Of a stretch of 64,000 bases of DNA, positions 15,873 through 46,580 are shown piece after piece. The position numbers were made by a program, and so were the translations under genes. This DNA comes from Escherichia coli (GTDB lineage: Bacteria > Pseudomonadota > Gammaproteobacteria > Enterobacterales > Enterobacteriaceae). Under the pieces are notes generated by a model. That model ran no database searches and was not told the DNA's origin. It saw only the letters and a list, made by a program, of their open reading frames with translations. The stretch lies in NCBI RefSeq assembly GCF_011045215.1, contig NZ_CP049201.1, one strand, 5' to 3'. Numbering within the stretch: position 1 is the first letter of the stretch; each line of letters opens with the position of its first letter.

Positions 15873-16087
15873 ACATGTATTCCCGGTGAAAAAAGACAAA
15901 ACCCCGCGCACCGGAAAAGTGGCGGGGGACTCACGGAGATAATATCTGCCTAAAATTATTTGGAATGCAGGTATATGCAGCTAATTTGTATCGGCTCATT
16001 AGTACAGAACTAAACCTCATCTGACAGTCCGCTCTGTGCCAAGAGCGGACTTTGCAAAATGGGGGTTATTTCAATCAAAACGTAACG

Positions 16088-17032
16088 TCACAACCAGCCG
16101 ACGCTCTCTCGCCATTTATAATTAGTAACTTTATCATTTTCGCTTATTTTTTTAGATATAGAGCGCGGCTCTCTTCCTAGATACTCAGATATTTCTATCG
16201 GGGACAAATCAAAATCGACAAGCATGACTCTAAGTTTTTCCATTTCCTTTAAAGTCCAAGGCTTGCCATAATTTTCATAAAGAGATACCTTATGCTCCCT
16301 GATAGTTCGCTTTCTCTGAGTTTCACTTTCCCTCTGAAAAATCTCGCTTTTAAATTGTGAACGGAACTCTTTACAGAAGTTGTTATCAGTTTTTTTGTTA
16401 TATAGATTGCTAAAAATAAGCTGGGATGCCGGGTCTAAATCAGGTGTGTTAATAATGAAAACTTTGACCTTTTCCATATAGGGATATTCAATTTTACCCA
16501 ATATGCTTAATTGCTTTATATTAAAAAAACCTCTCAAATCAAAAGATTTAATGAGCTTTGATTGGATTACACTTTCAATCCTGCTTGCATTTGAATAACA
16601 GTACTTTGCCATTGGAAGGGCCCATACTACCAGTTGAGGAATATATTTTTCTAATGCAATGCTCTGCCAATCAGTATCAAAGGTTTGGCTTTTTGCTAGC
16701 ATGTTTTTCGGCAAATCAGAATACATTGTGGTAGATGCCCATATCTTATAATCATTCGCCAAGGCTTGATAGTATTTTGTGTGGTTATGAATTTTATAAG
16801 CTGACATGAAGCGATAAACGTCTTCGTCGTGACCAGCGTCGTAAATTGTTCGATTTCCTCTAAGATAACCGTCGTAATGTTCGGTTATCCTTCTACCTAC
16901 ATTACAACTTACCCCAACGTAAACCACACGACTGAAAAGTCCTTTATGGACAATAAGATAAACTCCGCTACAGCCAGATTTCCTGGCCTCTGATAGAGAA
17001 CCTAAAAATCTCCATTCCATAATTAAATCCAT
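16088..17032 (-). CDS. GIY-YIG nuclease-domain protein, AT-rich, otherwise uncharacterised
   Basis: N-terminal GVYLIVHKGLFSRVVYVGVSCNVGRRITEHY resembles the GIY-YIG catalytic motif; low GC and Asn/Lys/Ile-rich; start uncertain (ATG at 17032 or 17020). Confidence 0.55.
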   Translation of the reverse strand: MDLIMEWRFLGSLSEARKSGCSGVYLIVHKGLFSRVVYVGVSCNVGRRITEHYDGYLRGNRTIYDAGHDEDVYRFMSAYKIHNHTKYYQALANDYKIWASTTMYSDLPKNMLAKSQTFDTDWQSIALEKYIPQLVVWALPMAKYCYSNASRIESVIQSKLIKSFDLRGFFNIKQLSILGKIEYPYMEKVKVFIINTPDLDPASQLIFSNLYNKKTDNNFCKEFRSQFKSEIFQRESETQRKRTIREHKVSLYENYGKPWTLKEMEKLRVMLVDFDLSPIEISEYLGREPRSISKKISENDKVTNYKWRESVGWL

Positions 17033-20748: not shown

Positions 20749-22088
20749 TGGTGGATTTAATGGTGAATGAGCAACGGTCGAGTACGGCGGGGAAAGATGT
20801 GCCTGCGGGGTATAAACTGACTGAGGTGGGCGTGATTCCTGAGGATTGGGATTGCGTACCATTTGGTAATCTGTTTAAAACAAACACAAAGAAAAAAAAA
20901 GTCAGCGATTATGAGCTAGTTTCATTTATTGGGATGCAGGATGTTAGTGAAGATGCACAATTAAAAAATAATACTCAACTTCCTTTTAAAGAAGTTAAAA
21001 GTGGTTTTACTTACTTTGAAAAAGGGGATGTTTTATTAGCTAAAATAACCCCTTGTTTTGAAAATGGAAAAGGATGTCATACCGCTGATTTACCTACTAA
21101 TGTAGGTTTTGGGAGTACGGAATTTCATGTATTAAGGGAAAATGAAGACTCCGATTCTCGCTTCATCTATTTTTGGACAACTGATAAAAAATTCAGAGCA
21201 TCACTGGAATCTGAAATGGTGGGAAGTGCGGGACACCGTCGTGTGCCGCTAGTTGCTATAGAAAAATATTTGATTCCATGTCCCCCAAATTTGCAAGAGC
21301 AAAGTGCTATTGCTGATTCATTATCTGATATTAATAATTTTATTCTAGCTCTAGAAAAGCTTATCGTTAAAAAACAAGCCATTAAAACCGCTACTATGCA
21401 GCAACTACTGACGGGTAAAACCCGTTTGCCACAGTTTGCGTTACGCAAAGATGGCTCTGCTAAGGGATATAAAAAGAGCGAGTTGGGGGCGATTCCTGAA
21501 GATTGGGTAGTCACAAGCATTGGACAATTTACTGACTGCTGTGCTGGTGGAACTCCGAGTACTAAAATTTCAGCATATTGGGGAGGAACTCATCCTTGGA
21601 TGAGTTCCGGCGAATTACACTTAAAACAAGTGTATGCTGTAGCCGATTATATAACCGACGAAGGGCTTGTTAACTCCAGTACAAAGTATGTGCCTAAAAA
21701 TTCTGTATTAGTCGGATTGGCAGGACAAGGAAAGACTCGAGGGACTGTAGCAATTAATCGCATTGAATTATGTACTAATCAGTCTATTGCTGCGATTTTC
21801 CCCAGCAAACATCATTCCACAGAATTCCTGTTCTATAACCTCGACAGTCGTTATGAGGAACTGAGAAGTTTATCTACTGGTGATGGGGGGCGTGGTGGGT
21901 TGAATCTTACTATTATCAGGAAATTACATCTTGCATTTCCGCCAAAAGAAGAACAAGCCGCCATCGCCGCCATCCTCTCCGATATGGACAAGGAAATCCA
22001 GATCCTGCAACAGCGTCTGGACAAAACCCGCCAGCTTAAGCAAGGGATGATGCAGGAACTGTTAACCGGGAAAATCCGCTTAATATAG
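20748..22088 (+). CDS. hsdS: Type I R-M specificity subunit HsdS
   Basis: Two target-recognition-domain architecture with conserved central and C-terminal repeats (LLTGKTRLP / LLTGKIRL); ATG overlaps hsdM TGA (ATGA). Confidence 0.85.
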   Translation: MVDLMVNEQRSSTAGKDVPAGYKLTEVGVIPEDWDCVPFGNLFKTNTKKKKVSDYELVSFIGMQDVSEDAQLKNNTQLPFKEVKSGFTYFEKGDVLLAKITPCFENGKGCHTADLPTNVGFGSTEFHVLRENEDSDSRFIYFWTTDKKFRASLESEMVGSAGHRRVPLVAIEKYLIPCPPNLQEQSAIADSLSDINNFILALEKLIVKKQAIKTATMQQLLTGKTRLPQFALRKDGSAKGYKKSELGAIPEDWVVTSIGQFTDCCAGGTPSTKISAYWGGTHPWMSSGELHLKQVYAVADYITDEGLVNSSTKYVPKNSVLVGLAGQGKTRGTVAINRIELCTNQSIAAIFPSKHHSTEFLFYNLDSRYEELRSLSTGDGGRGGLNLTIIRKLHLAFPPKEEQAAIAAILSDMDKEIQILQQRLDKTRQLKQGMMQELLTGKIRLI

Positions 22089-22100
22089 AAGGGAAAGCAC

Positions 22101-22757
22101 ATGGCTTATGATTACAGCGCCAGCCTCAACCCGCAAAAAGCTCTGATCTGGCGTATCGTCCATCGGGACAATATCCCGTGGATTCTGGATAACGGGCTGC
22201 ACTGCGGCAACAGTCTGGTGCAGGCGGAAAACTGGATCAATATCGGCAACCCGGAGCTGATCGGCAAGCGTGCCGGGCATCCGGTACCTGTCGGAACGGG
22301 CGGGACACTGCATGACTATGTGCCGTTTTATTTTACCCCCTTCTCGCCAATGCTGATGAACATCCACAGCGGGCGCGGCGGCATTAAGCAACGCCCCAAT
22401 GAGGAGATCGTTATTCTGGTCAGCAACTTGCGGAACGTGGCAGCACACGACGTGCCCTTCGTGTTTACCGACAGCCATGCTTACTATAACTGGACCAACT
22501 ACTACACCAGTCTGAATAGTCTGGACCAGATCGACTGGCCCATTTTGCAGGCACGGGACTTTCGCCGCGATCCAGACGATCCGGCTAAATTTGAACGCTA
22601 TCAGGCAGAGGCGCTAATCTGGCAACACTGCCCGATCTCTCTGCTGGATGGGATAATTTGTTACAGCGAAGAGGTCAGGTTACAATTAGAGCAATGGCTG
22701 TTTCAGCGTAATCTAACAATGTCCGTTCACACACGGGCTGGATGGTACTTCTCATGA
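22101..22757 (+). CDS. darT: DarT-like DNA ADP-ribosyltransferase toxin (DUF4433)
   Basis: 218-aa ORF immediately followed by a macrodomain gene with overlapping stop/start; family call from recalled DUF4433 features. Confidence 0.7.
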
Positions 22758-23821
22758 TCACATATACACAAGGCAATTTACTGGACGCACCGGTGGAAGC
22801 TCTGGTGAATACGGTTAATACCGTCGGTGTCATGGGGAAAGGCATCGCGTTGATGTTTAAAGAGCGCTTCCCCGAAAATATGAAAGTCTATGCCCTCGCT
22901 TGCAAACAAAAGCAGGTGATCACCGGCAAAATGTTCATTACCGAAACCGGGGAACTGATGGGACCGCGCTGGATTGTTAATTTTCCGACCAAACAGCACT
23001 GGCGCGCTGATTCCCGCATGGAGTGGATTGAAGATGGCTTGCAGGACTTACGCCGCTTTTTGATTGAAGAGAACGTGCAGTCCATCGCCATTCCACCACT
23101 GGGCGCAGGCAACGGTGGTTTGAACTGGCCGGACGTTCGGGCGCAGATTGAATCTGCCCTTGGCGACCTTCAGGACGTTGATATCCTGATTTACCAACCG
23201 ACTGAAAAATACCAGAACGTTGCCAAAAGCACTGGCGTAAAAAAGCTCACTCCCGCCAGAGCCGCCATCGCTGAACTGGTGCGTCGCTACTGGGTATTGG
23301 GGATGGAGTGCAGCCTACTGGAAATCCAGAAACTGGCCTGGCTGTTACAACGCGCCATTGAGCAGCATCAACAGGACGATATCCTCAAACTGCGGTTTGA
23401 AGCTCACTATTATGGCCCCTATGCGCCCAATCTGAACCATCTGCTTAATGCGCTGGACGGCACCTATCTAAAAGCCGAGAAACGCATCCCGGACAGCCAA
23501 CCGCTGGATGTGATCTGGTTTAACGATCAAAAAAAAGAACACGTTAATGCGTATCTGAACAACGAAGCCAGAGAGTGGCTACCTGCGCTGGAGCAGGTCA
23601 GCCAGTTAATTGACGGCTTTGAATCGCCGTTTGGTCTGGAGTTGCTGGCAACCGTAGACTGGTTGCTGAGCCGTGGCGAATGTCAACCAACGCTGGATTC
23701 CGTTAAGGAAGGACTGCACCAGTGGCCTGCGGGCGAACGCTGGGCCAGCCGTAAGTTGAGGCTGTTTGATAATAATAATCTGCAATTTGCCATTAACCGC
23801 GTAATGGAGTTCCATTGCTGA
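22754..23821 (+). CDS. darG: DarG-like macrodomain antitoxin
   Basis: N-terminal macrodomain signature ([36 protein letters not shown]) plus C-terminal extension; ATG overlaps darT TGA; alternative in-frame ATG at 22742. Confidence 0.75.
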
Positions 23822-23839: not shown

Positions 23840-26800
23840 TTGAGTACCGTGGGCCAGCGCGAACGCGCCACACAGCAGCGTCTGATTCAGTTTTTTGTTG
23901 AAGATTTAGGATACCGCCATCTGAGTCACCGCACCGGGTACACCGGGAACAGCAACATCGACACTAATATACTGAGCGCGTGGCTAAAACGGCGCGGCGT
24001 TAATGATACGTTGATCACCCGGGCGTTGCGGCAACTGGATTCCGCCGCCGCCCTGGGCGAAGGCAAAAAACTCTATTACGCCAATAAAGAGGTCTATCGC
24101 CTGCTGCGTTACGGCGTGAAAGACAAAGAAGGTGCAGGCGAGCAGAACCAAACCGTGTGGCTGATTGACTGGGCCAACCCACAAGCCAATGATTTCGCCA
24201 TCGCCGATGAGGTGACGGTCAAAGGCGAGTACTGCAAGCGCCCGGATCTGGTGCTGTACGTTAACGGCATTGCGCTGGGCGTGATTGAACTTAAGCGTTC
24301 GTCAGTGCACGTCAGCGAAGGTATCCGGCAGAATCTCGATAATCAAAAGAAAACCTTTATCCGCGATTTCTTCACCACTATGCAGTTAGTGATGGCAGGC
24401 AACGATACGCAGGGCCTGCGCTACGGCACCATCGAAACCCCGGAAAAATACTATCTGGAGTGGAAAGAAGATAATCCAGGCGACTATACACATAAACTCG
24501 ACTTTCATTTAAGTCGTCTGTGTAGCAAATCCAGGCTGTTGGATATCGTCCATAATTACATTGTCTTTGATGTCGGGGTGAAAAAACTCTGCCGCCATAA
24601 TCAGTTCTTCGGCGTCGAGGCGGCTAAGCAACATATTGCCCGTCGTGAAGGCGGTATTATCTGGCACACACAGGGATCGGGTAAAAGCCTGACGATGGTC
24701 TGGCTGGCGAAGTGGATCCGTGAAAATGTGCCAAACTCCCGCGTGTTGATTGTGACTGACCGCACCGAACTGGATGAACAGATCGAAAGCGTGTTTATGG
24801 GCGTGAATGAAGATATTTATCGCACCTCCAGCGGCAACGATCTTATCGCAACGCTCAATCATCCTAACCCGTGGCTTATTTGCTCGCTGGTGCATAAATT
24901 TGGTTGTCGCAGCGAAGCTGAAGACAATGCGGCTACCGACGCCTTTATCACCGAATTACAGCAGTCCCTGACGAAAACATTCCGCGCCAAAGGCGATCTG
25001 TTTGTTTTTGTGGACGAGTGCCACCGCACACAATCCGGCAAGCTGCATAACGCCATGACTGCCATTCTGCCGGACGCCCTGTTTATCGGTTTTACCGGCA
25101 CACCGCTGATGAAGAAAGATAAGAAGAAGTCGGTTGAGGTGTTCGGCCCTTATATCCATACCTATAAATTTGATGAAGCGGTGGCCGACGGTGTGGTGCT
25201 GGATCTGCGCTACGAGGCGCGCGATATTGACCAGTATCTGACATCAGAGAAAAAGGTCGATGACTGGTTTGAAGCCAAGACTCGCGGTTTGTCGAATTTA
25301 GCCAGGACCCAGCTTAAGCAAAAGTGGGGATCAATGCAGAAGCTGCTCTCCAGCAAGTCGCGGCTGGAGCAGATCGTTAACGACATTTTGCTGGATATGG
25401 ATACCCGTCCACGCCTGATGGACGGGCGCGGCAACGCCATGCTGGTATGCAGCAGTATCTATCAAGCCTGCAAGGTTTACGAGATGTTCAGCCAGACCGA
25501 GCTGGCAGGAAAAGTAGCGATTGTGACCAGCTATCGCCCCGATGCCGCCAGCATCAAAGGCGAAGAAACGGGCGAAGGGTTAACGGAGAAACTCTCTAAA
25601 CACGCCACCTATCGTAAAATGTTGGCTGACTATTTTGAACAAAGTGAAGAGAAGGCCGCCGCACGCATTACCGAGTTCGAGCGGGAAGTGAAACAACGTT
25701 TTATTGAAGAGCCGGGGCAAATGCGCCTGCTTATCGTGGTGGACAAGCTGTTGACTGGCTTTGACGCGCCGTCCGCCACCTATCTCTACATTGATAAAAC
25801 CATGACCGACCATACGCTGTTTCAGGCGATTTGTCGGGTGAACCGGCTGGACGGTGAGGATAAAGAGTATGGCTATATTATCGATTATAAAGATCTGTTC
25901 CGTTCGCTGGATAAAGCGATTACCGATTACACCACGGGCGCGTTTGATGATTACGATCGGGACGATGTGGCCGGGTTGCTGAAAGACAGGCTGGAGCAGG
26001 CGCAACTGGATCTCGACAGCGCGCTGGAGATGGTTCGCAGCTTATGTGAGCCCGTCAAAACCCCGCGCAGCCTGCAGGACTATCAGCACTATTTTTGCGG
26101 TAAATCAGGAGAGAATCAGACTTCGTTAAACGAAAAAGAGGCGCTGCGCCTGACATTTTACCAGTGCGTCGCCCGTCTGCTACGCGCTTATGCCAGCATC
26201 GCCAATGAAATGCCGGAAGCAGGCTACACTGCCGAAGAGGTAGAGAGCATTCGCGCCGAAGTCGCTGAATTCGAAAAACTGCGCTATGAGATTAAGCTGA
26301 CCAGCGGCGATCTTCTGGATATGAAGCGCTTTGAACCCGCTATGCGTCATTTACTGGATATGTATGTTCGCGCCGATGGTAGCGAAGTGCTGATGGATTT
26401 TGAAGAGTTAAGTCTGATTGAACTGATTGTCGAGAAAGGCTTGGCGGCGACCGTCGCCCTGCCGGATGATATCCGTAATAATCAGGATGCGATGGCGGAA
26501 ACCATCGAAAACAACGTGCGCAAAACCATCGTGGATGAAAACCCGGTTAACCCAAAATACTATGGACGCATGTCGCAGCTGCTGGATGAACTGATTACCC
26601 TTCGCCGACAAAATGCGCTCAATTATCAGCAGTATCTGGAACGTATCCGCGATTTGTGTAAACAGGTCATCCGCCCGGAGCAAACCGCCGGAGCGTGCTA
26701 CCCTGCCACCATGGATACACAAGCAAAGCGCGCCTTCTATGACAACTTCGGCCACGACGAGGTACTGGCGACCCGCATAGATACGACAATTCGCTATACC

Positions 26801-26935
26801 AAAAGGGCAGAGTGGATTGGCGATCGTTTTAAAGAACGGGAAATTGCCAACGCATTACGTGAAGAGACCGCCAGCTATAATATTGATATTGATGAGGTGA
26901 TAGCGCTTGCCCGTCAGCAGAAGGAATATCACTGA
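23840..26935 (+). CDS. hsdR: Type I restriction endonuclease subunit HsdR (1031 aa)
   Basis: SF2 helicase motifs (HTQGSGKSLTM Walker A, VFVDECHR DEAH-box); TTG start 7 nt after AAGGAG. Confidence 0.9.
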   Translation: MSTVGQRERATQQRLIQFFVEDLGYRHLSHRTGYTGNSNIDTNILSAWLKRRGVNDTLITRALRQLDSAAALGEGKKLYYANKEVYRLLRYGVKDKEGAGEQNQTVWLIDWANPQANDFAIADEVTVKGEYCKRPDLVLYVNGIALGVIELKRSSVHVSEGIRQNLDNQKKTFIRDFFTTMQLVMAGNDTQGLRYGTIETPEKYYLEWKEDNPGDYTHKLDFHLSRLCSKSRLLDIVHNYIVFDVGVKKLCRHNQFFGVEAAKQHIARREGGIIWHTQGSGKSLTMVWLAKWIRENVPNSRVLIVTDRTELDEQIESVFMGVNEDIYRTSSGNDLIATLNHPNPWLICSLVHKFGCRSEAEDNAATDAFITELQQSLTKTFRAKGDLFVFVDECHRTQSGKLHNAMTAILPDALFIGFTGTPLMKKDKKKSVEVFGPYIHTYKFDEAVADGVVLDLRYEARDIDQYLTSEKKVDDWFEAKTRGLSNLARTQLKQKWGSMQKLLSSKSRLEQIVNDILLDMDTRPRLMDGRGNAMLVCSSIYQACKVYEMFSQTELAGKVAIVTSYRPDAASIKGEETGEGLTEKLSKHATYRKMLADYFEQSEEKAAARITEFEREVKQRFIEEPGQMRLLIVVDKLLTGFDAPSATYLYIDKTMTDHTLFQAICRVNRLDGEDKEYGYIIDYKDLFRSLDKAITDYTTGAFDDYDRDDVAGLLKDRLEQAQLDLDSALEMVRSLCEPVKTPRSLQDYQHYFCGKSGENQTSLNEKEALRLTFYQCVARLLRAYASIANEMPEAGYTAEEVESIRAEVAEFEKLRYEIKLTSGDLLDMKRFEPAMRHLLDMYVRADGSEVLMDFEELSLIELIVEKGLAATVALPDDIRNNQDAMAETIENNVRKTIVDENPVNPKYYGRMSQLLDELITLRRQNALNYQQYLERIRDLCKQVIRPEQTAGACYPATMDTQAKRAFYDNFGHDEVLATRIDTTIRYTKRAEWIGDRFKEREIANALREETASYNIDIDEVIALARQQKEYH

Positions 26936-27651
26936 TGCCAATCATGCAAATAGGCTCGTTACACTTGCTGGTCAACCGTAAGGCGATTAAGAATCTGCAT
27001 ATCAGCGTGCTGCCGCCTGATGGCAAAGTCCGCGTTTCAGCGCCGGAACATATGACGGAGACGGCGATTCGTATGGCGGTTGCTTCACGCTTTCGCTGGA
27101 TCAGAAAACAGCAGCAGGATTTCGCCAGACAGCCTCGTCAATCAGAGAGGGAAATGGTCAGCGGAGAGTGCCACTATCTTTGGGGCCGAAGATATCGCCT
27201 ACTTGTGATTGAGCGTCACGGGCGTCACGAAGTAAAAGTTGCGGGAAATAATAAGCTCCAGCTTTATGTTCAACCGGGAACCCGTGATGAAAATAAGGCA
27301 TTGGCGTTAAGTGAATTTTATCGACATGAACTAAAACAGCAGGTGGCTAAGCTTCTACCTGAATGGCAAGACCGAATCGGTGTTCCCCTAACATTCTGGG
27401 GCATCAAAAAGATGAAAACCTTTTGGGGCACCTGTAACACTACAACAAAACGAATCTGGCTCAATCTGGAGCTAATTAAGAAGCCGCCGGAGTGTCTGGA
27501 GTATATTCTGGTGCATGAACTGGTTCATCTTCTGGAACGTCACCATAATGCTCGCTTCCGGTTGCATATGGATCGGTTTATTCCTGACTGGCGTGAGCGT
27601 CGGGATTTGTTAAATAATATGCCGTTAGCGTTTGAGGCATGGGAGTATTGA
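26935..27651 (+). CDS. M48/DUF45 (YgjP-like) zinc metallopeptidase-fold protein
   Basis: HEXXH motif (HELVHLLERHH); ATG overlaps hsdR stop. Confidence 0.75.
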   Translation: MPIMQIGSLHLLVNRKAIKNLHISVLPPDGKVRVSAPEHMTETAIRMAVASRFRWIRKQQQDFARQPRQSEREMVSGECHYLWGRRYRLLVIERHGRHEVKVAGNNKLQLYVQPGTRDENKALALSEFYRHELKQQVAKLLPEWQDRIGVPLTFWGIKKMKTFWGTCNTTTKRIWLNLELIKKPPECLEYILVHELVHLLERHHNARFRLHMDRFIPDWRERRDLLNNMPLAFEAWEY

Positions 27652-27907
27652 TTGAGCCTGTAACTGTTTTTTGTCCATAAATTAACCTTCATTTGATGCT
27701 GGATAGAACATATCAAAATCAGACAATTACACAAATCTATGTACAGGCTCAACTCCTGCCATGGAACGTAGTACTCACCAATAAGTAAGCATCAATACGG
27801 CGCTCCGTTAACGCTTACTAGCATGGTTATCTCCTTAAAAAATTGAGGCGACAACTATGCTGACACAGGGGGTTACTCACCGATCTCCTTCACGGTAATA
27901 CGCAGTT

Positions 27908-28024
27908 CTTCAGAACCCGCCTCCGATACCAGCCTGGCGGTCGCCCCGGCGCAAGCAAAATAAATCGACCATTGTCAGACTGCGATCGTTCGGATGCCCC
28001 GCCACCGACGCATCAGTATGAGTT
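27908..28024. repeat. Direct repeat copy A (~117 bp), partner at 36875..37003
   Basis: cttcagaacccgcctccgataccagcctggcg...gcaagcaaaataaatc.accattgtcagactgcgatc shared with copy B at ~88% identity by eye. Confidence 0.7.
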
Positions 28025-28258
28025 AACCGAAACGATACAAAATTGCCTGAGAATCATTACGCTGGCTGATGGAAGGCACACCAAAAGCCTCTGCACAGAA
28101 CGATGTTCGGCAACAACAGAAACATGATTGCGTTCATGGCAATAGTCATTCGTACCGTTACAGGCGGTATTGATTTATTACAGACAAGCGGTACATATAT
28201 GTACCGCTTGGTTAAGTAAAAAAACAGATATGAACGCTATTATGTTCATTCTACTTTA

Positions 28259-28816
28259 TTAAAAGCGATAACCCACGCCAATATTGAATCCATTAATGGA
28301 ATAATTATCGCCAAGTTTTGCTCTGGTTCCTTCATATCCGGCATTAATTGTAATATTACTTGTCGGATTGATCATTACCCCGGCAGCATAAGCAAAAGAT
28401 GTGGATTTTTTCGAAATATTTTCTCTGGCGAAATAACCATCAACGTTTGTCCATGCTGTTTTACCATCAGCTTTAACATGCGCCACGCCGCCAGCCGCAT
28501 ACAGTGACATATAATCGTTAATGCGCCATACGGGGCCGGTCAGTAAGGAATAATATTTTGCATCAACCTGGTTTTTAATTGAATCGCCATATGAATGATA
28601 TTCCTGATTACCATCCCCTTTCATCCAGGAGAAACTGCCCATAATACTGACCGGGGAGTCCCATTCATACCTGTACTGCAGGTTTACCCCTCTAATATTC
28701 TTGAAGTTCTGAATTTTACTCTGTGCATAACCGACAGAAAACGAATGGTTGTCAGCCAGCACGGAACCGCTTGCCACTGATAATATGATGGCTGAAAGAA
28801 CTGACAGTTTTTTCAT
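28259..28816 (-). CDS. Ail/Lom/OmpX-family outer-membrane beta-barrel protein
   Basis: Signal peptide MKKLSVLSAIILSVASGSVLA, alternating amphipathic strands, C-terminal ...NIGVGYRF aromatic terminus. Confidence 0.8.
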   Translation of the reverse strand: MKKLSVLSAIILSVASGSVLADNHSFSVGYAQSKIQNFKNIRGVNLQYRYEWDSPVSIMGSFSWMKGDGNQEYHSYGDSIKNQVDAKYYSLLTGPVWRINDYMSLYAAGGVAHVKADGKTAWTNVDGYFARENISKKSTSFAYAAGVMINPTSNITINAGYEGTRAKLGDNYSINGFNIGVGYRF

Positions 28817-29081
28817 TTTATTATCTCCATTGTTAATGAGAGTTATTTGATGAAATAATGATGCTAATATTTCTATCTGATGTCAATCACTCTGAGGGTG
28901 GTTGATACGTCAGAGGAACAACAGCTACATTAATATGCTATTTCAACCGGTTATCAGCATTAATTACAGCATACTTGTTCTGAATATCTCCGCATTCACG
29001 ATCAGCTTTACGACAGACAGTCATTTCTCTGTCAAAAGCATGTACCTCGTCGTAGCTGAGGTAGTTATTCTCAACAACATT

Positions 29082-29315
29082 TCAGAACCCCTTAACTTTC
29101 ATGATATGCAACAAACCAATACCCAAGCCTAAGATCCCCCCCCCATACACACTCATTTTTAACAGTCTAGAAAACTGAAAAACTTCAAATGATATTGGGG
29201 CATTCAAATAAAAATACATAAATATCTTCAGAAGAAGATAAAAAATCGAACCGACTATAAACAAACCAAATATGCATACAGTCATTAATAAGACAACAAT
29301 AAGAAGGTTCTTCAT
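29082..29315 (-). CDS. Orphan CdiI-like immunity protein (77 aa, two predicted TM helices)
   Basis: Small hydrophobic ORF overlapping the stop of the orphan cdiA-CT by 4 nt. Confidence 0.6.
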
Positions 29316-30343
29316 TTCCCAGCCTCCATTGCATCTTTCTTTTTCTGGATAATGGAGCTTCCAAACTCAGATGATAAACTACCACCCGCATTACCCACAG
29401 CACCAGGGATCTTACTCGGTACCATTTCTTTAGATAGACCTAACTGCCCTTTAACTTCAGTATATTTTAGTAGAGTCGGATCGAATTTAGGATTCCAGCC
29501 ACCGGTTATCCATTTACCGATTGTATTTGCAGCAGGCTTGACCACATAATTGCCAACCCCATATCCAAACCCGGCCCCCGCTCCATTTGTAATCGCCCCA
29601 GTAAGAGGATCATCTCCGTTTATGGCGTTGGTTAATGCTCCACCTGCCGCATTCCAGGCTATTGTCCCTTTCCAGCCCTGCCCCATGGTGATTACATTGA
29701 CCCATCCTGCAATGATTGCATTTTCAGGATCAACTGAACTATCTACCATGTAACCAATTCCTGCATTTGCACCTGTGCCAAGAGCCCACATGGCCTGAGC
29801 ACCGCCAGGTAAGAGAGCTACACTACCAGTGGCCAACGCTCCGGCATACGCTTTATTGACTGCTTCTCCTCGCTTACAGGCTTCACCGCCTGGGGCATCG
29901 TTACAGGAAAGTACATCTGCGCCATGCGTCTGAGCAGCTTTGCTCTGCTCGGACTCTGTGCCACCAACCAAGTTATTCTCAGCAATGTTCTTCCCAACAC
30001 CAGCCCCTGCAGCCGCGCCAGCCACATCGCCACTGGCAATGCCGCCAGCCATACCCGCTGACAGCGTTGCCAGCGTGCTTATCGTCTGCTTCTGCTCTTC
30101 ACTGAGGTCTGACTGTTTCACGCCCGGATACAGCATTCCGATCGCTCTGGCTGCCAGCTCTCCCGTTGCTGCGCCTGCTGCACCAGCAGCAACATTATTA
30201 CTCTGCATTGCCGCTACTGCACCGCCCAGAATGGCGTGAGCAATGGCCTTTACTGCCGGGTCTTTTTCTGTTGATTTCAGCAGGTATGCCAGTTCCGGAG
30301 CCGAAGCTCCCGCCAGTACTGCACCAACGTCACCACCTGCCAG
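29312..30343 (-). pseudogene. Orphan cdiA-CT fragment (pretoxin/VENN-like region plus glycine-rich C-terminal toxin domain), 5'-truncated
   Basis: Translation upstream of the annotated ATG continues as ...[53 protein letters not shown]..., homologous to the CdiA 37491..46565 pretoxin region ([13 protein letters not shown]...VENN); preceded by an in-frame stop at 30344. Confidence 0.75.
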
Positions 30344-31048
30344 CTATGGCTGGAGATGGTGGATGTTACCGATAATCAAGAAGCCTTAGATATAAGGCAA
30401 TGTTTTATCTTTCTTTCATACGAAAACCAGTGCTGCCATACTAGCCCTTTTCCTGTGACATCTAAGCGAGCTCATGTTTATCGGGAAGGGTGTTAGATCA
30501 TTGTTAATCATACACAGGTAATTATGCAGCGGTTATGCATAACTTCATTTCGAGCGTGTGATAACGCCAACACAATCACCAGAATTATAAAATAAAATCA
30601 CAAAACCTGAGAACATGTCACATTTTATCACATTAATAATTTTTCTTTATGATTTCATAACTATTTACAGCCTTTTATTAAGCCAAAAAAAGTTAAATTG
30701 CAATTATTGCATAATTATTCGCGCTACAGTTTTTTTACTTTTAAAATCATATAATATATAATCACCTTAAAACAGCAAACTCCACAAAATAATAACAAAT
30801 AGAAATATTTCCACCCAAATAATGATTATCTATTCATGAGCTGACATTATGAAATTAATCATTATTTGATGCAAATAACACAAATTAAAACAAACACCTT
30901 AATATCCATTCTTGTGTGAATCTCATCACAATAATGTTTATTTTACCGCCTAGTATGAACCACGAAATCAATTGAACTTAGCCGCCATGAAATTAAATAC
31001 ACAACATGGCGCATACCTTTTTATTCTGAAAAAATTAAAGGAATAATT

Positions 31049-32269
31049 ATGGAAAAGCATTACGTCGGTTCTGAAATTGGTCAATTGCGTAGTGTTATGC
31101 TGCACCGCCCAAATTTAAGTCTGAAACGTTTGACACCATCGAATTGTCAGGAACTGCTTTTCGATGATGTACTCTCGGTTGAACGGGCAGGTGAAGAGCA
31201 TGACATCTTCGCAAATACGCTGCGCGATCAGGGGGTGGAAGTCCTGCTGTTAACAGACCTCCTGACACAAACCCTTGATATTAAAGAAGCGAAAACCTGG
31301 CTACTGGAGACGCAAATTTCTGACTACCGCCTCGGACCTACCTTTGCGGGCGATGTGCGCAGCTGGCTGGCGGACATGCCGCACCGTGAACTGGCGCGAA
31401 GATTAAGCGGCGGATTAACTTACGGTGAAATTCCGGCTGCCATTAACAATATGGTGGTGGATACCCACACGTCTAATGACTTTATTATGAAGCCGCTACC
31501 GAATCATTTATTTACCCGCGATACCTCCTGCTGGATTTATAACGGTGTTTCTATTAACCCGATGGCCAAACCAGCCCGTCAACGTGAAACCAATAACCTC
31601 CGGGCAATATATCGCTGGCACCCGGCATTTGCCGACGGCGATTTTATTAAGTATTTCGGCGACGAAAATATTTATTACGACCACGCCACTTTGGAAGGTG
31701 GCGACGTATTAGTGATTGGTCGTGGGGCGGTATTGATCGGCATGTCTGAACGCACAACACCGCAGGGCGTGGAGTTCCTCGCCAACAGCCTGTTCAAACA
31801 TCGTCAGGCCGAGCGAGTGATCGCCGTTGAGCTGCCAAAACACCGCTCCTGTATGCACCTTGACACCGTCATGACCCACATCGACGTTGACACTTTCTCC
31901 GTTTACCCGGAAGTGGTGCGCAAAGACGCCCAGTGCTGGACGCTCACTTCGAACGGACGCGATGGCCTACAACGGACCCAGGAAACCGACCTGTTGCACG
32001 CCATCGAGAAAGCACTCGGTATTGACCAGGTACGCTTGATCACCACCGGCGGCGACGCCTTTGAAGCCGAACGTGAGCAGTGGAACGACGCCAATAACGT
32101 TCTGACCATCCGCCCCGGTGTGGTGATTGGTTACGAGCGCAACGTCTGGACTAACGAGAAATACGACAAAGCCGGCATCACCGTGCTGCCCATCCCGGGG
32201 GACGAATTGGGACGAGGCCGCGGCGGCGCACGCTGCATGAGCTGTCCGCTTGAACGCGACGGAATTTAA
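31049..32269 (+). CDS. arcA: Arginine deiminase
   Basis: 406-aa [31 protein letters not shown]... typical ADI N-terminus; RBS aaaggaataattATG. Confidence 0.9.
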
Positions 32270-32279
32270 AGGAGCCATC

Positions 32280-33191
32280 ATGGAACGAAAACCCACTTTG
32301 GTTGTGGCGTTGGGCGGCAACGCATTATTGAAGCGCGGCGAACCACTGGAAGCAGAAATCCAGCGCCAGAACATTGAGTTGGCCGCCCGTACCATCGCCG
32401 GGCTCACGGTGAATTGGCGCGTGGTGTTGGTTCACGGCAACGGTCCACAGATCGGGCTGCTGGCGCTGCAGAACAGCGCCTACGACAAAGTAACCCCTTA
32501 TCCACTGGACGTTCTTGGCGCCGAAAGCCAGGGGATGATCGGCTACATGCTCCAGCAGGCGCTGAAAAACAGCCTGCCACAGCGTGAGGTGAGCGTCCTG
32601 CTTACTCAGGTGGAAGTGGACGCTACTGACCCGGCGTTCAGCAACCCGACCAAATATATCGGACCGGTGTACAACGAAGACCTGGCAAAAACACTGGCAG
32701 CAGAAAAAGGTTGGGGGTTTAAGGCCGACGGCAGCTACTTCCGTCGCGTGGTGCCATCTCCACAGCCGAAACGCATTGTCGAGAGCGATGCTATTACGGC
32801 ACTGATCCAGCGCGACCATCTTGTTATCTGCAACGGCGGCGGTGGTGTGCCAGTTGTGGAAAAGGCTAACGGCTATCGCGGAATTGAGGCGGTGATCGAC
32901 AAAGACCTCTCTGCTGCCCTGCTGGCATACCAGATAGGGGCCGACGCACTACTGATTCTCACTGATGCCGACGCGGTTTACCTCGATTGGGGCAAACCGA
33001 CCCAGCGTCCGCTAGCGCAGGTGACGCCAGAACTGCTCAGAGGCATGCAGTTTGACACCGGATCGATGGGGCCGAAAGTGGCCGCCTGCTGCAAGTTTGT
33101 TGAAGCTTGCAACGGTATTGCCGGGATCGGCGCTCTGGTCGACGGGGCTGAGATTTTGGCGGGCAAGAAAGGCACATTGATTCGTAACTGA
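32280..33191 (+). CDS. arcC: Carbamate kinase
   Basis: MERKPTLVVALGGNALLKRGE... carbamate kinase N-terminal motif; six-frame ORF extends 10 codons upstream. Confidence 0.9.
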   Translation: MERKPTLVVALGGNALLKRGEPLEAEIQRQNIELAARTIAGLTVNWRVVLVHGNGPQIGLLALQNSAYDKVTPYPLDVLGAESQGMIGYMLQQALKNSLPQREVSVLLTQVEVDATDPAFSNPTKYIGPVYNEDLAKTLAAEKGWGFKADGSYFRRVVPSPQPKRIVESDAITALIQRDHLVICNGGGGVPVVEKANGYRGIEAVIDKDLSAALLAYQIGADALLILTDADAVYLDWGKPTQRPLAQVTPELLRGMQFDTGSMGPKVAACCKFVEACNGIAGIGALVDGAEILAGKKGTLIRN

Positions 33192-33275
33192 ATCCCCCTT
33201 CACCTAACCCTCTCCTCAAAGGGGAGATGGCAGAGTGAGGGCATCAGACAGTTAAAATTTAAAAAGGATTTCCTA

Positions 33276-34280
33276 ATGACCATCAATTTGAAAAAACGCA
33301 ACTTCCTTAAACTGCTGGACTACACCCCGGCAGAGATCCAGTACCTGATCGATCTCGCGATCAAACTGAAAGCGGCCAAAAAAGCCGGACGAGAAAAACA
33401 GACCTTGGTTGGCAAAAACATTGCCCTGATTTTTGAAAAAACCTCCACCCGTACCCGCTGTGCTTTCGAAGTGGCTGCGTTCGACCAGGGGGCGCAGGTG
33501 ACCTACCTCGGCCCAGGCGGATCGCAAATCGGCCATAAAGAGTCAATGAAAGACACCGCCCGTGTGCTGGGCCGTATGTATGACGGCATCGAATACCGTG
33601 GTTACGGTCAGGCCATCGTTGAGGAGTTGGGCAAATACGCGGGCGTACCGGTGTGGAACGGTCTGACCGACGAATTTCACCCAACCCAAATCCTCGCAGA
33701 TTTGATGACCATGCTGGAACATTCCCCGGGCAAAAAACTGTCGGAACTGAGCTTTGCCTACCTTGGCGACGCACGCAACAACATGGGTAACTCCCTGATG
33801 GTGGGGGCTGCCAAAATGGGGATGGATATCCGTCTTGTAGCCCCAAAATCCTTCTGGCCGGATGTGGTGCTTGTTGAACAGTGCCGTTCCATCGCGGAAG
33901 AGACGGGCGCACGTATCACCCTGACCGATGACGTGGAAGAAGGCGTGTGGGGAACGGATTTCCTCTACACCGATGTTTGGGTCTCCATGGGTGAACCGAA
34001 AGAGGCGTGGACCGAACGCGTCAGCCTGATGAAGCCTTATCAAATCAACGCTGACGTGATGAACGCCACCGGCAACCCGAACGTCAAGTTCATGCACTGC
34101 CTGCCAGCCTTCCACAATGAGCACACCAAAGTGGGCCGAGAAATTGAGATGGCATACGGCCTGAAGGGACTGGAGGTGACGGAAGAGGTCTTCGAATCCC
34201 CTAACTCTATCGTCTTTGATGAAGCAGAAAACCGCATGCATACCATTAAAGCGGTCATGGTGGCGACACTCGGCGACTAA
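33276..34280 (+). CDS. arcB: Ornithine carbamoyltransferase (catabolic)
   Basis: STRTR carbamoyl-phosphate binding motif and HCLP motif. Confidence 0.9.
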
Positions 34281-34327
34281 TCACCACCCGGTGCGTCGTA
34301 GGGTGCACCGGGTCTCAGGAGAACATC

Positions 34328-35731
34328 ATGGGTAAGTTCAAATTTCCCTCCGCATATACCATTCTCTTTTTTCTGATTGCCATCGTTGCCGTCCTGACGT
34401 GGATCATTCCAGCCGGGCAGTATCACATGGCAATGAACGAAGCTCTCGGCAAGGAGGTTCCTGTTGCCGGCACCTATGCACACGTAGAGGCCAATCCGCA
34501 GGGACTGATTTCAGTGCTGATGGCCCCAATTGCCGGGTTGTATGATCCAGACTCCGGTCAGGCTAGGGCGATAGACGTTGCGCTGTTTATTCTGATCATC
34601 GGAGGATTCCTCGGGATCGTCACCAAAACCGGGGCCATTGACGCCGGAATCGAGCGCGTCACCACCCGACTACGTGGTCGCGAAGAGTGGATGATCCCGA
34701 TCCTTATGGCGCTGTTTGCTGCTGGCGGTACAATTTACGGCATGGCCGAAGAATCCCTGCCGTTTTATACCCTGCTGGTGCCGGTGATGTTGGCAGCACG
34801 CTTCGACCCTGTGGTAGCCGCCTCCACCGTGCTGCTCGGCGCCGGGATCGGCACGCTCGGTTCCACCATTAACCCTTTCGCGACGGTGATCGCCGCCAAT
34901 GCAGCCGGGATCCCCTTCACCAACGGTATCACCTTGCGTGTGGTGGTGCTTGTCATCGGCTGGATAATCTGCGTGACATGGGTGATGCGCTATGCCCGGA
35001 AAGTTCGCAAGGAGCCGTCTCTCTCCATTATTGCGGATAAACAAGAGGAGAACCTCGCCCACTTCCTCGGCAATAAAAGCGAACAGGCTCTGGAGTTCAC
35101 CCCGGTACGCAAAATTATTCTGGTGATTTTCGCCCTTACCTTCGCGGTCATGATCTACGGCGTGGCGGTGCTGGGTTGGTGGATGGCGGAGATCTCAACG
35201 GTATTTCTGGCCAGCGCAATTATCATCGGCCTGATCGCCCGCATGAGCGAAGAGGAACTGACCTCTACCTTTATCAACGGCGCGCGAGATTTGCTGGGCG
35301 TTGCACTGATTATCGGTATCGCGCGCGGTATCGTAGTGATCATGGATAAAGGTATGATTACCCATACTATTTTGCACTACGCCGAGGGAATGGTTACTGG
35401 ATTATCGACAGTAGCATTCATCAACGTGATGTATTGGCTGGAAGTGGTGCTGTCGTTTCTTGTGCCTTCTTCGTCCGGTCTGGCCGTTCTGACGATGCCG
35501 ATCATGGCACCTCTTGCCGACTTCGCTAACGTCAACCGCGACCTGGTAGTTACGGCTTACCAGTCTGCGTCCGGTATCGTTAACCTGATCACTCCCACCT
35601 CTGCCGTTGTGATGGGCGGACTGGCTATCGCCCACGTGCCTTACGTGCGATATCTGAAATGGGTTGCGCCGCTGCTTGGGATATTAACAGTGGTAATTAT
35701 GGTGGCATTAAGTCTGGGGGCATTGTTGTAA
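34328..35731 (+). CDS. YfcC-family membrane transporter (putative arginine/ornithine antiporter of the ADI operon)
   Basis: 467-aa polytopic membrane protein, co-directional and immediately downstream of arcB. Confidence 0.7.
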   Translation: MGKFKFPSAYTILFFLIAIVAVLTWIIPAGQYHMAMNEALGKEVPVAGTYAHVEANPQGLISVLMAPIAGLYDPDSGQARAIDVALFILIIGGFLGIVTKTGAIDAGIERVTTRLRGREEWMIPILMALFAAGGTIYGMAEESLPFYTLLVPVMLAARFDPVVAASTVLLGAGIGTLGSTINPFATVIAANAAGIPFTNGITLRVVVLVIGWIICVTWVMRYARKVRKEPSLSIIADKQEENLAHFLGNKSEQALEFTPVRKIILVIFALTFAVMIYGVAVLGWWMAEISTVFLASAIIIGLIARMSEEELTSTFINGARDLLGVALIIGIARGIVVIMDKGMITHTILHYAEGMVTGLSTVAFINVMYWLEVVLSFLVPSSSGLAVLTMPIMAPLADFANVNRDLVVTAYQSASGIVNLITPTSAVVMGGLAIAHVPYVRYLKWVAPLLGILTVVIMVALSLGALL

Positions 35732-35811
35732 TTTGCCGGATGGCGCTGCCCCTATCCGGTCTACGGAATGGTGTGGTGTCACCGGTTATTTCGAGAACTG
35801 AATATAGGATT

Positions 35812-36291
35812 ATGATGGATTACGAAGATTTCTCTCCCAAAGAGCAACTACAGCTAACGGTCTGCCAACGTCTGATTGCAGAAAAGAGCTATTTTTCCCA
35901 AGAGGAGCTCCGCCGCGACTTACAGGAGCGTGGTTTTGAGACAATCAGCCAGTCCACCGTTTCTCGTCTGCTCAAGTTGTTAGGTGTCATAAAAATTCGA
36001 AATGCCAAAGGGCTAAAAGTCTATTCGCAGAATCCACAGTTGCGTCCGGCTCCTGATGCCGCGCGCACTGTGTCCGAAATGGTGGTGAGCGTTGAGCACA
36101 ATAGAGAATTTATCCTTATCCATACCGTTGCTGGATATGGCCGCGCAGTGGCACGTGTCCTTGATTATCACCAGTTGCCAGAAATTTTAGGCGTGGTGGC
36201 CGGAAGCAGTATCGTCTGGGTCGCTCCTCGGATGGTGAAGCGTGTCGCTCTGGTGCATAAGCAAATTAATTATTTACTAAGAACGTATTAA
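35812..36291 (+). CDS. argR: ArgR-family arginine-responsive repressor
   Basis: 159 aa from MMDYEDFSPKEQLQLTVCQRLIAEKSYFSQEELRRDLQERGFETISQSTVSRLLK... winged-helix N-terminus plus C-terminal oligomerisation domain. Confidence 0.8.
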   Translation: MMDYEDFSPKEQLQLTVCQRLIAEKSYFSQEELRRDLQERGFETISQSTVSRLLKLLGVIKIRNAKGLKVYSQNPQLRPAPDAARTVSEMVVSVEHNREFILIHTVAGYGRAVARVLDYHQLPEILGVVAGSSIVWVAPRMVKRVALVHKQINYLLRTY

Positions 36292-36538
36292 TATTCACAA
36301 ATGCCCGCTTGTATTGACTAATACATACATTAAATCGCTTCATTCGCAAAGCGAGTTTCCTATAATGCCTGATAATGTGCCAGGAGGGAGCATAGTCAAG
36401 CGTGTACGATATAACGTCTCACCGCGTCTGAAATCAGACACTGGCTTGGTGTTTTATTCCCGTTGCTTAATCTATTCCTTGGGTCCCTCATTTGAGGGGC
36501 TTTTTTTGCTCGGCATCAGGAGATAAACATGAATCCGT

Positions 36539-36688
36539 TTTATCAAAAAATAAATGCCCCTAGCCGCGAAGTGCTGGAGCTCGTTCTAAAAATCGCAGCA
36601 AAAATTGAAAACCATTCCTCAACCATCGCGGCGTTCGTATGCGCCGCCAATGATGCGCCCGAAAACGCGTCAATATGAGTTCGCCGGA
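36539..36688 (+). CDS. Small ORF (49 aa, MNPFYQKINAPSREVLELVLKIAAKIENHSS...) with strong RBS; speculative
   Basis: aggagataaacATG; its 3' end is the sequence that is repeated at 36946..37016 and 27975..28024. Confidence 0.25.
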
Positions 36689-36874
36689 ATATTACTCTGC
36701 TGTCGGGAGTTGAACGCCTGACGACAGGAAATGAGCCAGGCCAGCCACCACGCGGGCTGACAGCGAATCAGAACCTGAGTCAGCCCGGAGCCATTCCCGG
36801 GGCTGCACTTCATCACCTGCCACCAGTACCCGTGTCAGTACTTCGCGACCTGACGCAATTATCCGACTCAGTCC

Positions 36875-37003
36875 TTCAGAACCCGCCTCCGATACCAGCC
36901 TGGCGCTCGCCCCTGCGCAAGCAAAATAAATCAACCATTGTCAGACTGCGATCATTCGTATGCACCGCCGATGACGCGCCCGAAAACGCGTCAATATGAG
37001 TTC
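36875..37003. repeat. Direct repeat copy B, partner at 27908..28024; embedded in a block of sub-repeats (36655..37040)
   Basis: Same sequence as copy A; cgcccgaaaacgcgtcaatatgagttcgccggaatattac occurs at 36655 and 36975, with tatgagttcgccggaatattac again at 37021. Confidence 0.7.
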
Positions 37004-37064
37004 GCCGGAATATTACTCAATATGAGTTCGCCGGAATATTACGCCTAGCTGGGGGTTTTCTGTG

Positions 37065-37095
37065 CACAAAAAAATCCCGGCATAATGGCCGGGAT
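37065..37095 (-). terminator. Rho-independent terminator after cdiI (end of cdiBCAI operon)
   Basis: Hairpin atcccggc-ataatg-gccgggat preceded on plus strand by A-run (T-run on the transcribed minus strand). Confidence 0.6.
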
Positions 37096-37110
37096 TTGCG
37101 AGCTTTCCCA

Positions 37111-37485
37111 CTATTTCTTGATTCCTAAACGGAACATATCAGTTGGGAATAAAGGTTGTATTATCACTTCATCATTAAAAATGAATAATTTGGGCGATAA
37201 AGCTGTTACGTCATAGATATTTTCAGCGATTAATCTTAGATTTGACCTAAAAACTGGAATACTTGCATCATCTACAAAGACAAACATGTCATCGTTTTTT
37301 ACAGAGTTTGCACACAATAGCTCATCAAAACTCTCATAATCAGAATGCCAGATCTCTGACCAAGTAACACTTCCTTTCGCGAGAGGGTACTTATTTAAAA
37401 TGCCCAGAGCCTCCTGCTGAGCCAGCCCCTCTACTATATTAAAATCAGCACTCAGTGCTTCCCGACACTCATCAAATAAAGTCAT
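37111..37485 (-). CDS. cdiI: CdiI immunity protein cognate to the CdiA C-terminal toxin
   Basis: 124-aa ORF starting 6 nt after the cdiA stop; AT-rich relative to cdiA. Confidence 0.7.
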   Translation of the reverse strand: MTLFDECREALSADFNIVEGLAQQEALGILNKYPLAKGSVTWSEIWHSDYESFDELLCANSVKNDDMFVFVDDASIPVFRSNLRLIAENIYDVTALSPKLFIFNDEVIIQPLFPTDMFRLGIKK

Positions 37486-37490
37486 TTGCT

Positions 37491-46565: not shown

Positions 46566-46580
46566 TCTGATAAACCTGAC

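Follow-up and report, generated by a model that had tools for sequence, protein, structure and literature searches.

What is a CdiA toxin fragment with its own immunity gene doing on the far side of an arginine deiminase (ADI) operon from the contact-dependent growth inhibition (CDI) locus of the same strain? The module that raises this question occupies positions 29082-30343 on the minus strand of a 64,000-nt stretch of Escherichia coli DNA (hereafter the window, to whose positions all coordinates refer unless another contig is named), and it had been described in an initial annotation, made from the sequence alone, as an orphan cdiA-CT/cdiI cassette, that is, the 3' end of a cdiA gene encoding a C-terminal (CT) toxin region, followed by an immunity gene. 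The comparisons reported here lead us to read it as an ordinary orphan cdiA-CT/cdiI pair whose toxin is a group-6 type-10 ionophore of the CT-M15 family and whose likely working part is cdiI, a reading to which we give a probability of roughly 85%. The kind is a known one, and what is new is the allele and its arrangement: an ionophore domain of the M15 type with its cdiI, preceded by a diverged entry domain and set in a cdiA stub that is linked to the ADI operon. The module and the fragment that follows it consist of these features:

30344-30346, minus strand: in-frame TAG, the 5' bound of the truncated cdiA frame; the same stop and stub are found in E. coli mip270_05 (L003) and strain 1409 (L004).
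29984-30343, minus strand: pretoxin stub, 120 cdiA codons upstream of the ENN motif, without a two-partner secretion (TPS) domain, filamentous haemagglutinin (FHA) repeats or a convincing start site.
29972-29983, minus strand: AENN motif, a variant of VENN, marking the start of the CdiA-CT.
29711-29971, minus strand: N-terminal half of the CT (residues ~5-91), a divergent module and putative cytoplasm-entry domain, with 63% amino acid and 62-73% nucleotide identity to the CT of E. coli M9/M15.
29312-29710, minus strand: C-terminal ionophore domain (CT residues ~92-223) and stop codon, 125/129 identical to CT-M9/M15.
29082-29315, minus strand: orphan cdiI, encoding a 77-aa hydrophobic protein, a predicted two-helix hairpin, 75/77 identical to CdiI of E. 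coli M9/M15.
28938-29081, minus strand: second, truncated orphan fragment directly after cdiI, reading NVVENNYLSYDEVHAFDREMTVCRKADRECGDIQNKYAVINADNRLK*; no immunity gene follows it.

The minus-strand frame is open for 343 codons, from the TAG at 30346-30344 down to 29312, and contains no internal stop or frameshift. The initial annotation had extended it beyond the first ATG (30208) to 30343, with a stop at 30344, and had proposed that the extension resembles the pretoxin region of the resident CdiA around residues 2650-2780. Both points were confirmed: in a BLASTP alignment (single comparison) orphan residues 1-143 matched residues 2651-2796 of the resident CdiA with 44% identity and 61% positives (E=1e-12), and PT-VENN (PF04829) was the only Pfam domain found in the 343-aa frame, at orphan residues 78-125 (E=1.6e-12). 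A failure to align with the pretoxin region, which had been named as grounds for refuting the annotation, was thus not observed. At the boundary that follows, the orphan has IAENN rather than VENN, the family consensus among 72 homologues, and the 219 residues after ENN contain 17.5% Gly and 14.8% Ala, in agreement with the glycine-rich domain of ~215 residues that had been noted behind an ENN motif.

Gene callers annotate a 298-aa open reading frame (ORF) from ATG 30208 in public assemblies, and 29312-30208 could on that account be taken for a free-standing toxin gene with its own start and another export route. Against this, no Shine-Dalgarno sequence was seen when the sequence upstream of ATG 30208 was inspected, CdiA homology extends a further 45 codons upstream of this ATG and begins directly after the TAG stop, the same sequence forms the C-terminus of a 3254-aa CdiA elsewhere, and Pfam found neither a signal peptide nor a secretion-associated domain in the frame, only PT-VENN. 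An independent gene is therefore extremely improbable.

The 3254-aa protein is encoded on an ENA metagenome scaffold (MERR22-1_SAMEA4969188 scaffold_7397, L021), where the same DNA (99.5% identity over 2.1 kb, 100% from 30140 down) ends a full-length cdiA followed by cdiI; the match of the orphan to CdiA is far beyond chance. The scaffold CdiA is at least 3254 aa long and has TPS, FHA and PT-VENN domains; over its last 275 aa, IAENN and the entire CT among them, it does not differ from the orphan, and in the pretoxin region 115 of 125 aligned positions are identical to the stub. From 30140 to 28196, window and scaffold share 1,945 nt of 100% identical DNA that includes cdiI, the VENN remnant behind it and the start of an Ail/Lom gene, and all 11 nucleotide differences between the two lie at or above 30141. 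Because the full-length CdiA of the scaffold also carries AENN, this motif is a natural variant on a presumably deployable effector and not a sign of decay. The scaffold copy thus sits on a TPS-containing CdiA, whereas the window copy is decapitated. A survey for this CT on full-length cdiA, which had been proposed as a check, accordingly found it identical in the scaffold and 83% identical in E. coli M9/M15. These observations agree with the definition of orphan modules by Poole et al. (Poole 2011, PLoS Genet, PMC3150448): the 5' secretion and shaft regions and the translation start are missing, a PT-VENN boundary is followed by a variable CT, this CT is homologous to those of full-length CdiA proteins of other strains (identical in the scaffold, 83% identical in M9/M15/RM8082), and a small immunity ORF, here of 77 aa and overlapping the toxin stop, lies at once downstream.

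The orphan DNA is 86-90% identical to the 3' ends of full-length cdiA genes in strains M9, M6, M19, M11, M15 and RM8082, and this relationship identifies the toxin. For the protein comparison the M9 (L005) and M15 (L006) genes were both translated; CT and CdiI are the same in the two strains. Identity to M9/M15 is unevenly distributed along the orphan, amounting to 102 of 124 residues in the pretoxin region (82%), 57 of 90 in the N-terminal half of the CT (63%; frame residues 125-214), 125 of 129 in its C-terminal part (97%) and 182 of 219 over the whole CT (83%). Among the type-10 alpha-helical CDI ionophores, CT-M15 (APL26259.1 / APL26260.1) typifies group 6; it depolarises target cells, and the cognate cdiI protects against it (Halvorsen 2024, PLoS Genet, PMC11630599). 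The S1 Appendix of that paper lists the M9 CdiA WP_073528039.1 beside the M15 protein, both in group 6. This accession is the M9 CdiA as annotated in L005, and the M15 cloning primers of the same paper encode MKRLLI (cdiI), VENNLLG and EAGK*, exactly matching L005 and L006.

Type-10 toxins have been described as consisting of two alpha-helical, modular domains, one for entry at the N-terminus and a five-helix bundle at the C-terminus; a glycine zipper (GxxxGxxxG) is the sole sequence element common to the whole family, and the immunity proteins are very hydrophobic two-helix hairpins of 72-100 residues (PMC11630599). In the orphan, a glycine zipper is found at CT residues 134-144 (nt 29552-29584), where G134 and G140 are invariant and G136, G142 and G144 nearly so among the 72 homologues, and the region 29711-29971 is a putative entry domain by analogy with the published architecture. 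An AlphaFold2 (AF2) model of the CT, built from the 72-sequence alignment, consists of helices only, three of them before residue ~85 and five beyond it, with a mean predicted local distance difference test score (pLDDT) of 45.3 and a predicted template modelling score (pTM) of 0.37, values that make the fold unreliable. At the level of sequence, the orphan toxin and cdiI have every hallmark of group-6 type-10 ionophores. The suggestion of the initial annotation that a glycine-rich toxin next to a small membrane immunity protein points to a membrane-targeting toxin is thereby supported through a relative, CT-M15, that depolarises targets experimentally (PMC11630599). A sequence search of the PDB with the CT gave no match at E<=1, and NCBIfam and PADLOC searches with the toxin and immunity proteins returned no family. 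Ntox25 (PF15530, type 14) and a colicin pore-forming domain were considered and rejected, the Pfam scan of the 343-aa frame having given PT-VENN only.

Set beside the M15 CdiA-CT/CdiI pair, the orphan is alike in its ionophore domain, its CdiI and its glycine zipper, in the order of PT-VENN, CT and an overlapping small hydrophobic cdiI, and in the joint at which the cdiI stop is followed by NVVENN of the next orphan. It is unlike M15 in being unattached and having AENN, whereas the M15 CT is carried on a full-length CdiA with VENN, and in its putative DtpA/DtpB-binding entry half, which has only 63% protein and 62-73% DNA identity. The CdiA-CT of EC93 (group 1, AcrB-dependent), with which the orphan was compared by published description, belongs to the same type-10 superfamily and shares the glycine zipper, a predicted five-helix bundle and a small CdiI with two transmembrane segments; it differs in its entry receptor, and identity across groups is ~20-39% (PMC11630599).

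The module is a mosaic with three junctions. Over 30042-31200, which covers most of the stub and the intergenic sequence up to arcA, the window is 99.3% identical to mip270_05 and 98.7% identical to strain 1409, and 30141-30343 is sequence of the island-backbone type. Taken together with the comparison to the metagenome scaffold, this places a donor crossover within 30042-30140, about 20-50 codons upstream of AENN, so that the 3' end of a donor cdiA of the scaffold type would have recombined into a pre-existing stub. The second junction lies inside the toxin. At about 29710 (CT residue ~91), identity to M9/M15 rises abruptly from 62-73% to 98-100%, and the 99.6% match between the window and the orphan arrays of contigs L013-L020 and L022 begins precisely at 29710, a position that probably marks the boundary between the entry and ionophore domains. 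The toxin itself would then be mosaic: up to CT residue ~91 it would have a diverged entry domain, and from there on an M15-type ionophore domain with its cdiI. The third junction lies behind cdiI, where NVVENN and a truncated CT of 41 residues continue the frame. In strain M15, cdiI is joined to NVVENN in the same way, and the CT that comes next is another one, glycine-rich and 193 aa long. This joint matches the organisation reported by Poole et al., in which each orphan module extends from a VENN to the one after it and blocks of homology are delimited near the VENN-coding sequence (PMC3150448).

A complete toxin of this kind could be a silent spare warhead, activated by recombination onto a full-length cdiA and thereby switching the toxin/immunity type of the strain, which is the general hypothesis for orphans put forward in PMC3150448. 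The CT ORF is complete and identical to a CT on a full-length CdiA, 120 pretoxin codons are kept at ~92% nucleotide identity to the cdiA genes of M19 and related strains, and the cassette itself came to its present place by recombination, at the crossover in 30042-30140. The obstacle is the arrangement of the only cdiA in the window:

37111-48857, minus strand: resident CDI locus, with cdiB (47118-48857), cdiC (46581-47108), cdiA (37491-46565) and cdiI (37111-37485).
31049-36291, plus strand: arginine deiminase operon (arcA, arcC, argF, a yfcC-family transporter gene and argR), divergent from the orphan and convergent with cdiBAI.

No usable DNA homology was found between the stub and the resident cdiA (best 71% over 52 nt, longest exact match 13 nt), and recombination of the orphan with this gene was rejected for want of it. 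Moreover, the convergent 5-kb operon lies between the two, so that the ADI genes would be lost in any fusion, for which the homology substrate would still be wanting. A role as reserve toxin is possible, and we consider it unlikely.

With respect to the resident locus, CdiA has 3024 aa and a VENN near residue 2770, and its last 106 aa (37491-37808), a nuclease domain, match PDB 5T86 chain A ('CdiA toxin', E=3e-67), a BECR-fold E. coli CdiA-CT/CdiI complex without an associated publication according to a 2026 preprint. The 175-aa CdiC is an acyltransferase of the HlyC family (Pfam PF02794, E=4.6e-32; RefSeq homologue 'toxin-activating lysine-acyltransferase'), and its position between cdiB and cdiA indicates a locus of the cdiBCAI type, with a lipidating CdiC.

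Returning to the orphan pair itself, its immunity gene overlaps the toxin stop at its start (ATGA), and a GGAGG Shine-Dalgarno sequence lies 7 nt upstream. CdiI residues 4-36 are strongly hydrophobic (Kyte-Doolittle values up to 3.0 in a 19-residue window), and a second hydrophobic segment at ~54-72 is of the glycine-zipper type (GGILGLGIG; Kyte-Doolittle ~1.5, computed by hand), a topology that was read from hydropathy and that agrees with the 77-aa two-helix membrane protein gene originally noted after the toxin. The exact CdiI protein is present in 66 blocks of the assembly index, and in 8 of 10 contexts among those listed this cdiI allele adjoins a 5'-truncated hybrid toxin. In L013-L020 and L022 (e.g., L013 6824-8234), an intact and identical cdiI is preceded by a broken hybrid toxin, which consists of an unrelated IENN-CT fragment with a Gly-rich end and then, in another frame, the M15-type CT from residue ~50 on. 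That this cdiI is mostly found beside truncated toxins is consistent with immunity, not the toxin, being under selection.

Decay has to be weighed here too, in that both genes may be untranscribed leftovers of a destroyed M15/EC93-type cdi locus without a present function. The 5' ~9 kb of cdiA and the entire cdiB are gone, no promoter is proven, a further truncated VENN fragment remains at 28938-29081, the toxin beside this cdiI is truncated or hybrid in most other contexts, and the neighbourhood is rich in insertion sequences (IS) in relatives. On the other hand, the 343-codon frame is intact and, over 1,945 nt, 100% identical to the copy in the full-length gene, which argues for a recent acquisition, and cdiI is intact, has a strong Shine-Dalgarno sequence and is widespread in exactly this form in the 66 index blocks. 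We regard a mere remnant as rather doubtful.

How the pair came to lie apart from the resident locus is answered by its surroundings. The distance from the stop of the resident cdiI (37111) to the start of the orphan frame (30343) is 6.77 kb, as the initial annotation had estimated (~6.8 kb, ADI operon plus argR), and the genes in between, arcA-arcC-argF-yfcC-argR, are encoded on the opposite strand. Several complete E. coli genomes match the ADI region at 99.9% identity, among them that of mip270_05, which served as the source of the RefSeq gene annotation. The orphan and the operon lie within a block of 8.97 kb, for which three further features are relevant:

27900-28011, plus strand: left direct repeat of 112 nt, the left bound of the 8.97-kb block.
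36866-36977, plus strand: right direct repeat of 112 nt, 90% identical to the left copy and 8,966 nt apart from it.
28259-28816, minus strand: gene for an outer-membrane protein of the Ail/Lom/OmpX family (NCBIfam PRK15240, E=6e-45, below the curated cut-off; Pfam Ail_Lom in L007-L022).

The Ail/Lom gene accompanies this cdiI in nearly all contexts seen. E. coli NCCP 13892 (L025) represents the empty site: it has one hybrid copy of the repeat (L025 9001-9097) with nothing between the flanks, and both flanks are collinear with those of the window, at 99.4% identity on the hsdM-hsdS-darT-darG-hsdR-M48 side and 95.4% on the side of a cdiI-cdiA-cdiC-cdiB locus of the same type. Since this strain lacks all of them and has a single repeat copy, the Ail/Lom gene, the VENN remnant, the orphan cdiI, CT and stub, and the ADI operon form one indel block, which was gained or lost by recombination at the 112-nt repeat. 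The repeats were rejected as ends of a dedicated mobile element because the right copy is part of a ~320-nt sequence that is scattered over ~900 E. coli genomes, commonly more than once in a genome; we read the 112-nt repeat as a generic island repeat that would support recombination. Inverted repeats or IS ends around the block were looked for and none were found, the only repeats being the 112-nt direct repeats and a local 64-nt family, and an Rfam scan of 27400-37500 gave nothing at the gathering threshold. The 64-nt family has three copies in 36634-37044, two of them 95% identical and 321 nt apart, and overlaps small ORFs annotated by RefSeq as 'pyrBI operon leader peptide' in relatives.

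The initial annotation had viewed the cassette as displaced, the orphan having once stood directly after the resident cdiI until an ADI insertion pushed it 6.8 kb off. Orphan and cdiBAI do share their orientation, only the ADI genes and short spacers separate them, and large non-CDI insertions are known in orphan arrays, such as the SSuT element in EC869 o9 (PMC3150448). This history is nevertheless largely refuted by NCCP 13892, in which ADI, orphan and Ail/Lom are absent together at a single hybrid repeat. In addition, the stub belongs to a cdiA class other than the resident one (44% amino acid identity), so that it was not displaced from the resident operon, and ADI and stub also move without the resident cdiBAI, for instance on the IncF plasmid pGA_EcoNDM5, and occur in strains with cdiA deleted. 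Displacement is thus very unlikely, and the position of the orphan, downstream of cdiBCAI in the same orientation and 6.77 kb off across a convergent operon, is that of a part of an independently occurring block.

In the wider island, a DarT/DarG pair (PADLOC: DarT E=2e-74, DarG E=1.5e-127), a DNA ADP-ribosyltransferase anti-phage system, lies at 22101-23821 on the plus strand between hsdS (20742-22088) and hsdR (23840-26935) of a type I restriction-modification operon, and NCCP 13892 is arranged alike. At the left edge lie ghrA and tRNA-Ser(GGA), and toward the right end of the window lie an Ag43/Cah autotransporter (NCBIfam equivalog, 1973 bits) and a protein with a P4-type integrase domain (features listed within 2256-3515, 11779-14703 and 60731-61933). 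The neighbourhood is IS-rich in relatives.

The same layout bears on expression, for which two features were found:

37072-37097, minus strand: terminator-like hairpin with a 10-bp stem (6 G-C pairs) and a T-run, 14 nt after the resident cdiI stop.
30584-30613, minus strand: sigma-70-like promoter match directed toward the orphan, TTCTCA-18-TATAAT, 10/12, a consensus match only.

The EC93 orphan is co-transcribed with cdiBAI (PMC3150448). Here, co-transcription with cdiBAI is unlikely because of the hairpin at 37097-37072 and the convergent ADI operon, and with this route seemingly closed, transcription of the orphan would start in the 705-nt intergenic region between arcA and the orphan. Sigma-70-like sites numbered 10 in the region, compared with 5.7 +/- 2.7 in shuffles. 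The description of the cassette as promoterless goes further than the sequence alone allows, a site with 10/12 matches to the consensus facing the orphan at 30613-30584.

From these elements we propose that the role of the pair is likely to be immunity and/or a toxin reserve, with a toxin that is probably not deployable as it stands. Without a TPS domain and FHA shaft the fragment could not be exported, grafting onto the resident cdiA would not be readily possible because DNA homology is lacking, and translation from ATG 30208 would add 75 N-terminal residues to the CT; extra N-terminal residues abolish the cytosolic toxicity of CT-M15 (PMC11630599). Carried on a full-length CdiA, the CT would enter the inner membrane of the target via an integral membrane receptor and dissipate the membrane potential. 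The working part would most likely be cdiI, which is intact, has a strong Shine-Dalgarno sequence and encodes a product 75/77 identical to a proven immunity protein. If transcribed from the arcA-orphan intergenic region, CdiI would bind the ionophore domain in the inner membrane and would thereby protect the cell from neighbours delivering M15-type ionophores.

Several points weigh against this proposal. Cross-protection by a near-identical CdiI is assumed, and small differences can alter specificity in this family. The AF2 model of the CT is of low confidence (pLDDT 45), so that the division into entry and ionophore domains stands as putative. Target cells lacking dtpA and dtpB resist CT-M15, a DtpA/DtpB dependence that has been shown for CT-M15 and CT-O91:H8 only (PMC11630599), and for the orphan CT the receptor is uncertain, since its entry domain is only 63% identical to that of M15. 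With the cdiBAI co-transcription route seemingly closed, the orphan cdiI may be silent, and the candidate promoter is a bare consensus match. Finally, a pure immunity-only model does not require a toxin ORF that is preserved without damage and matches a deployable copy exactly, as this one does.

To place the ADI-linked stub in the species, 30042-31048 was used as query against 5,426 complete E. coli genomes with a coverage threshold of at least 80%. The stub with the arcA-proximal intergenic sequence was found in 355 of them, with at least 97.4% identity in every full-length match listed, so that the junction of stub and arcA, and with it a layout that had been thought unusual, turned out to be common. 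Many of the 355 genomes carry the stub on plasmids of 90-170 kb, many of them IncF; on pGA_EcoNDM5 (L023, NZ_CP093920.1), positions 9677-16240 hold the ADI operon and the truncated VENN-pretoxin stub between a truncated repA and IS66, without cdiBAI. In strains 1409 and E7, IS66 has deleted the resident cdiA and the stub-ADI unit is kept. The same stub is joined to different toxins. In mip270_05 it carries an Endonuclease_NS_2 nuclease CT with a 112-aa immunity gene, and in strain 1409 another, unrelated CT that is cut by IS3 (L004 8039-8947, also in L024) and begins VENNYLSVSEKTELEIAKQTIKNSKDPAEREKAQQKYDALLEKD...; this CT (VENNYLSVSEKTELEIAKQ...) seems to resemble the group-1 ionophore CT of EC93. 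At coverage of at least 80%, 42 complete genomes have the 1409-type cassette and 6 the nuclease cassette, and the ionophore cassette in the ADI-linked slot was found in 0 of the 5,426 complete genomes. In the large assembly index, 7 contigs contain the exact 298-aa ORF, and L008, one of the 7, has the same ADI context. A literature search for the linkage of ADI and an orphan in E. coli found no publication describing it among the papers searched.

A more speculative extension, which we think improbable, is that the ADI-linked stub acts as a 'landing pad' that captures CT/cdiI cassettes through homologous recombination without a full-length cdiA and spreads immunity together with the ADI operon, including on IncF resistance plasmids, or that the entry domain uses a receptor other than DtpA/DtpB. 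If the landing-pad reading were true, immunity would be expressed from the divergent arcA control region and would be tied to anaerobic or arginine conditions.

Among the known systems, the orphans of EC93, EC869 and Y. pseudotuberculosis described by Poole et al. (PMC3150448) are the natural comparison for an ordinary orphan pair. Like them, the window module is a startless cdiA fragment that keeps the pretoxin region and a (V)ENN motif, with a small cdiI next to it, a CT related to the full-length CdiA of other strains and more VENN fragments downstream. In contrast to them, it does not lie immediately after cdiI, a convergent 5-kb ADI operon and a terminator-like hairpin being placed between, its stub is of a cdiA class other than the resident gene, and it sits in a repeat-bounded 9-kb block that also moves without cdiBAI.

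For specialists the linkage of ADI operon and orphan will be an unsurprising detail of comparative genomics that brings no new mechanism, and the ADI operon between cdiI and orphan is no oddity, being a common and explainable island architecture. What changes is that an annotation as 'hypothetical / VENN pre-toxin' gives way to a specific prediction, a membrane-depolarising CDI toxin of the M15 type with its immunity gene. In the conserved orphan slot next to the ADI operon, three or more distinct toxin tips occur, and the mapped junctions, one in the pretoxin region and one at the boundary of the entry and ionophore domains, support the modular exchange of CDI toxins. Finally, the immunity allele is found far more widely than an intact toxin, in keeping with a retention of orphan immunity genes for defence.

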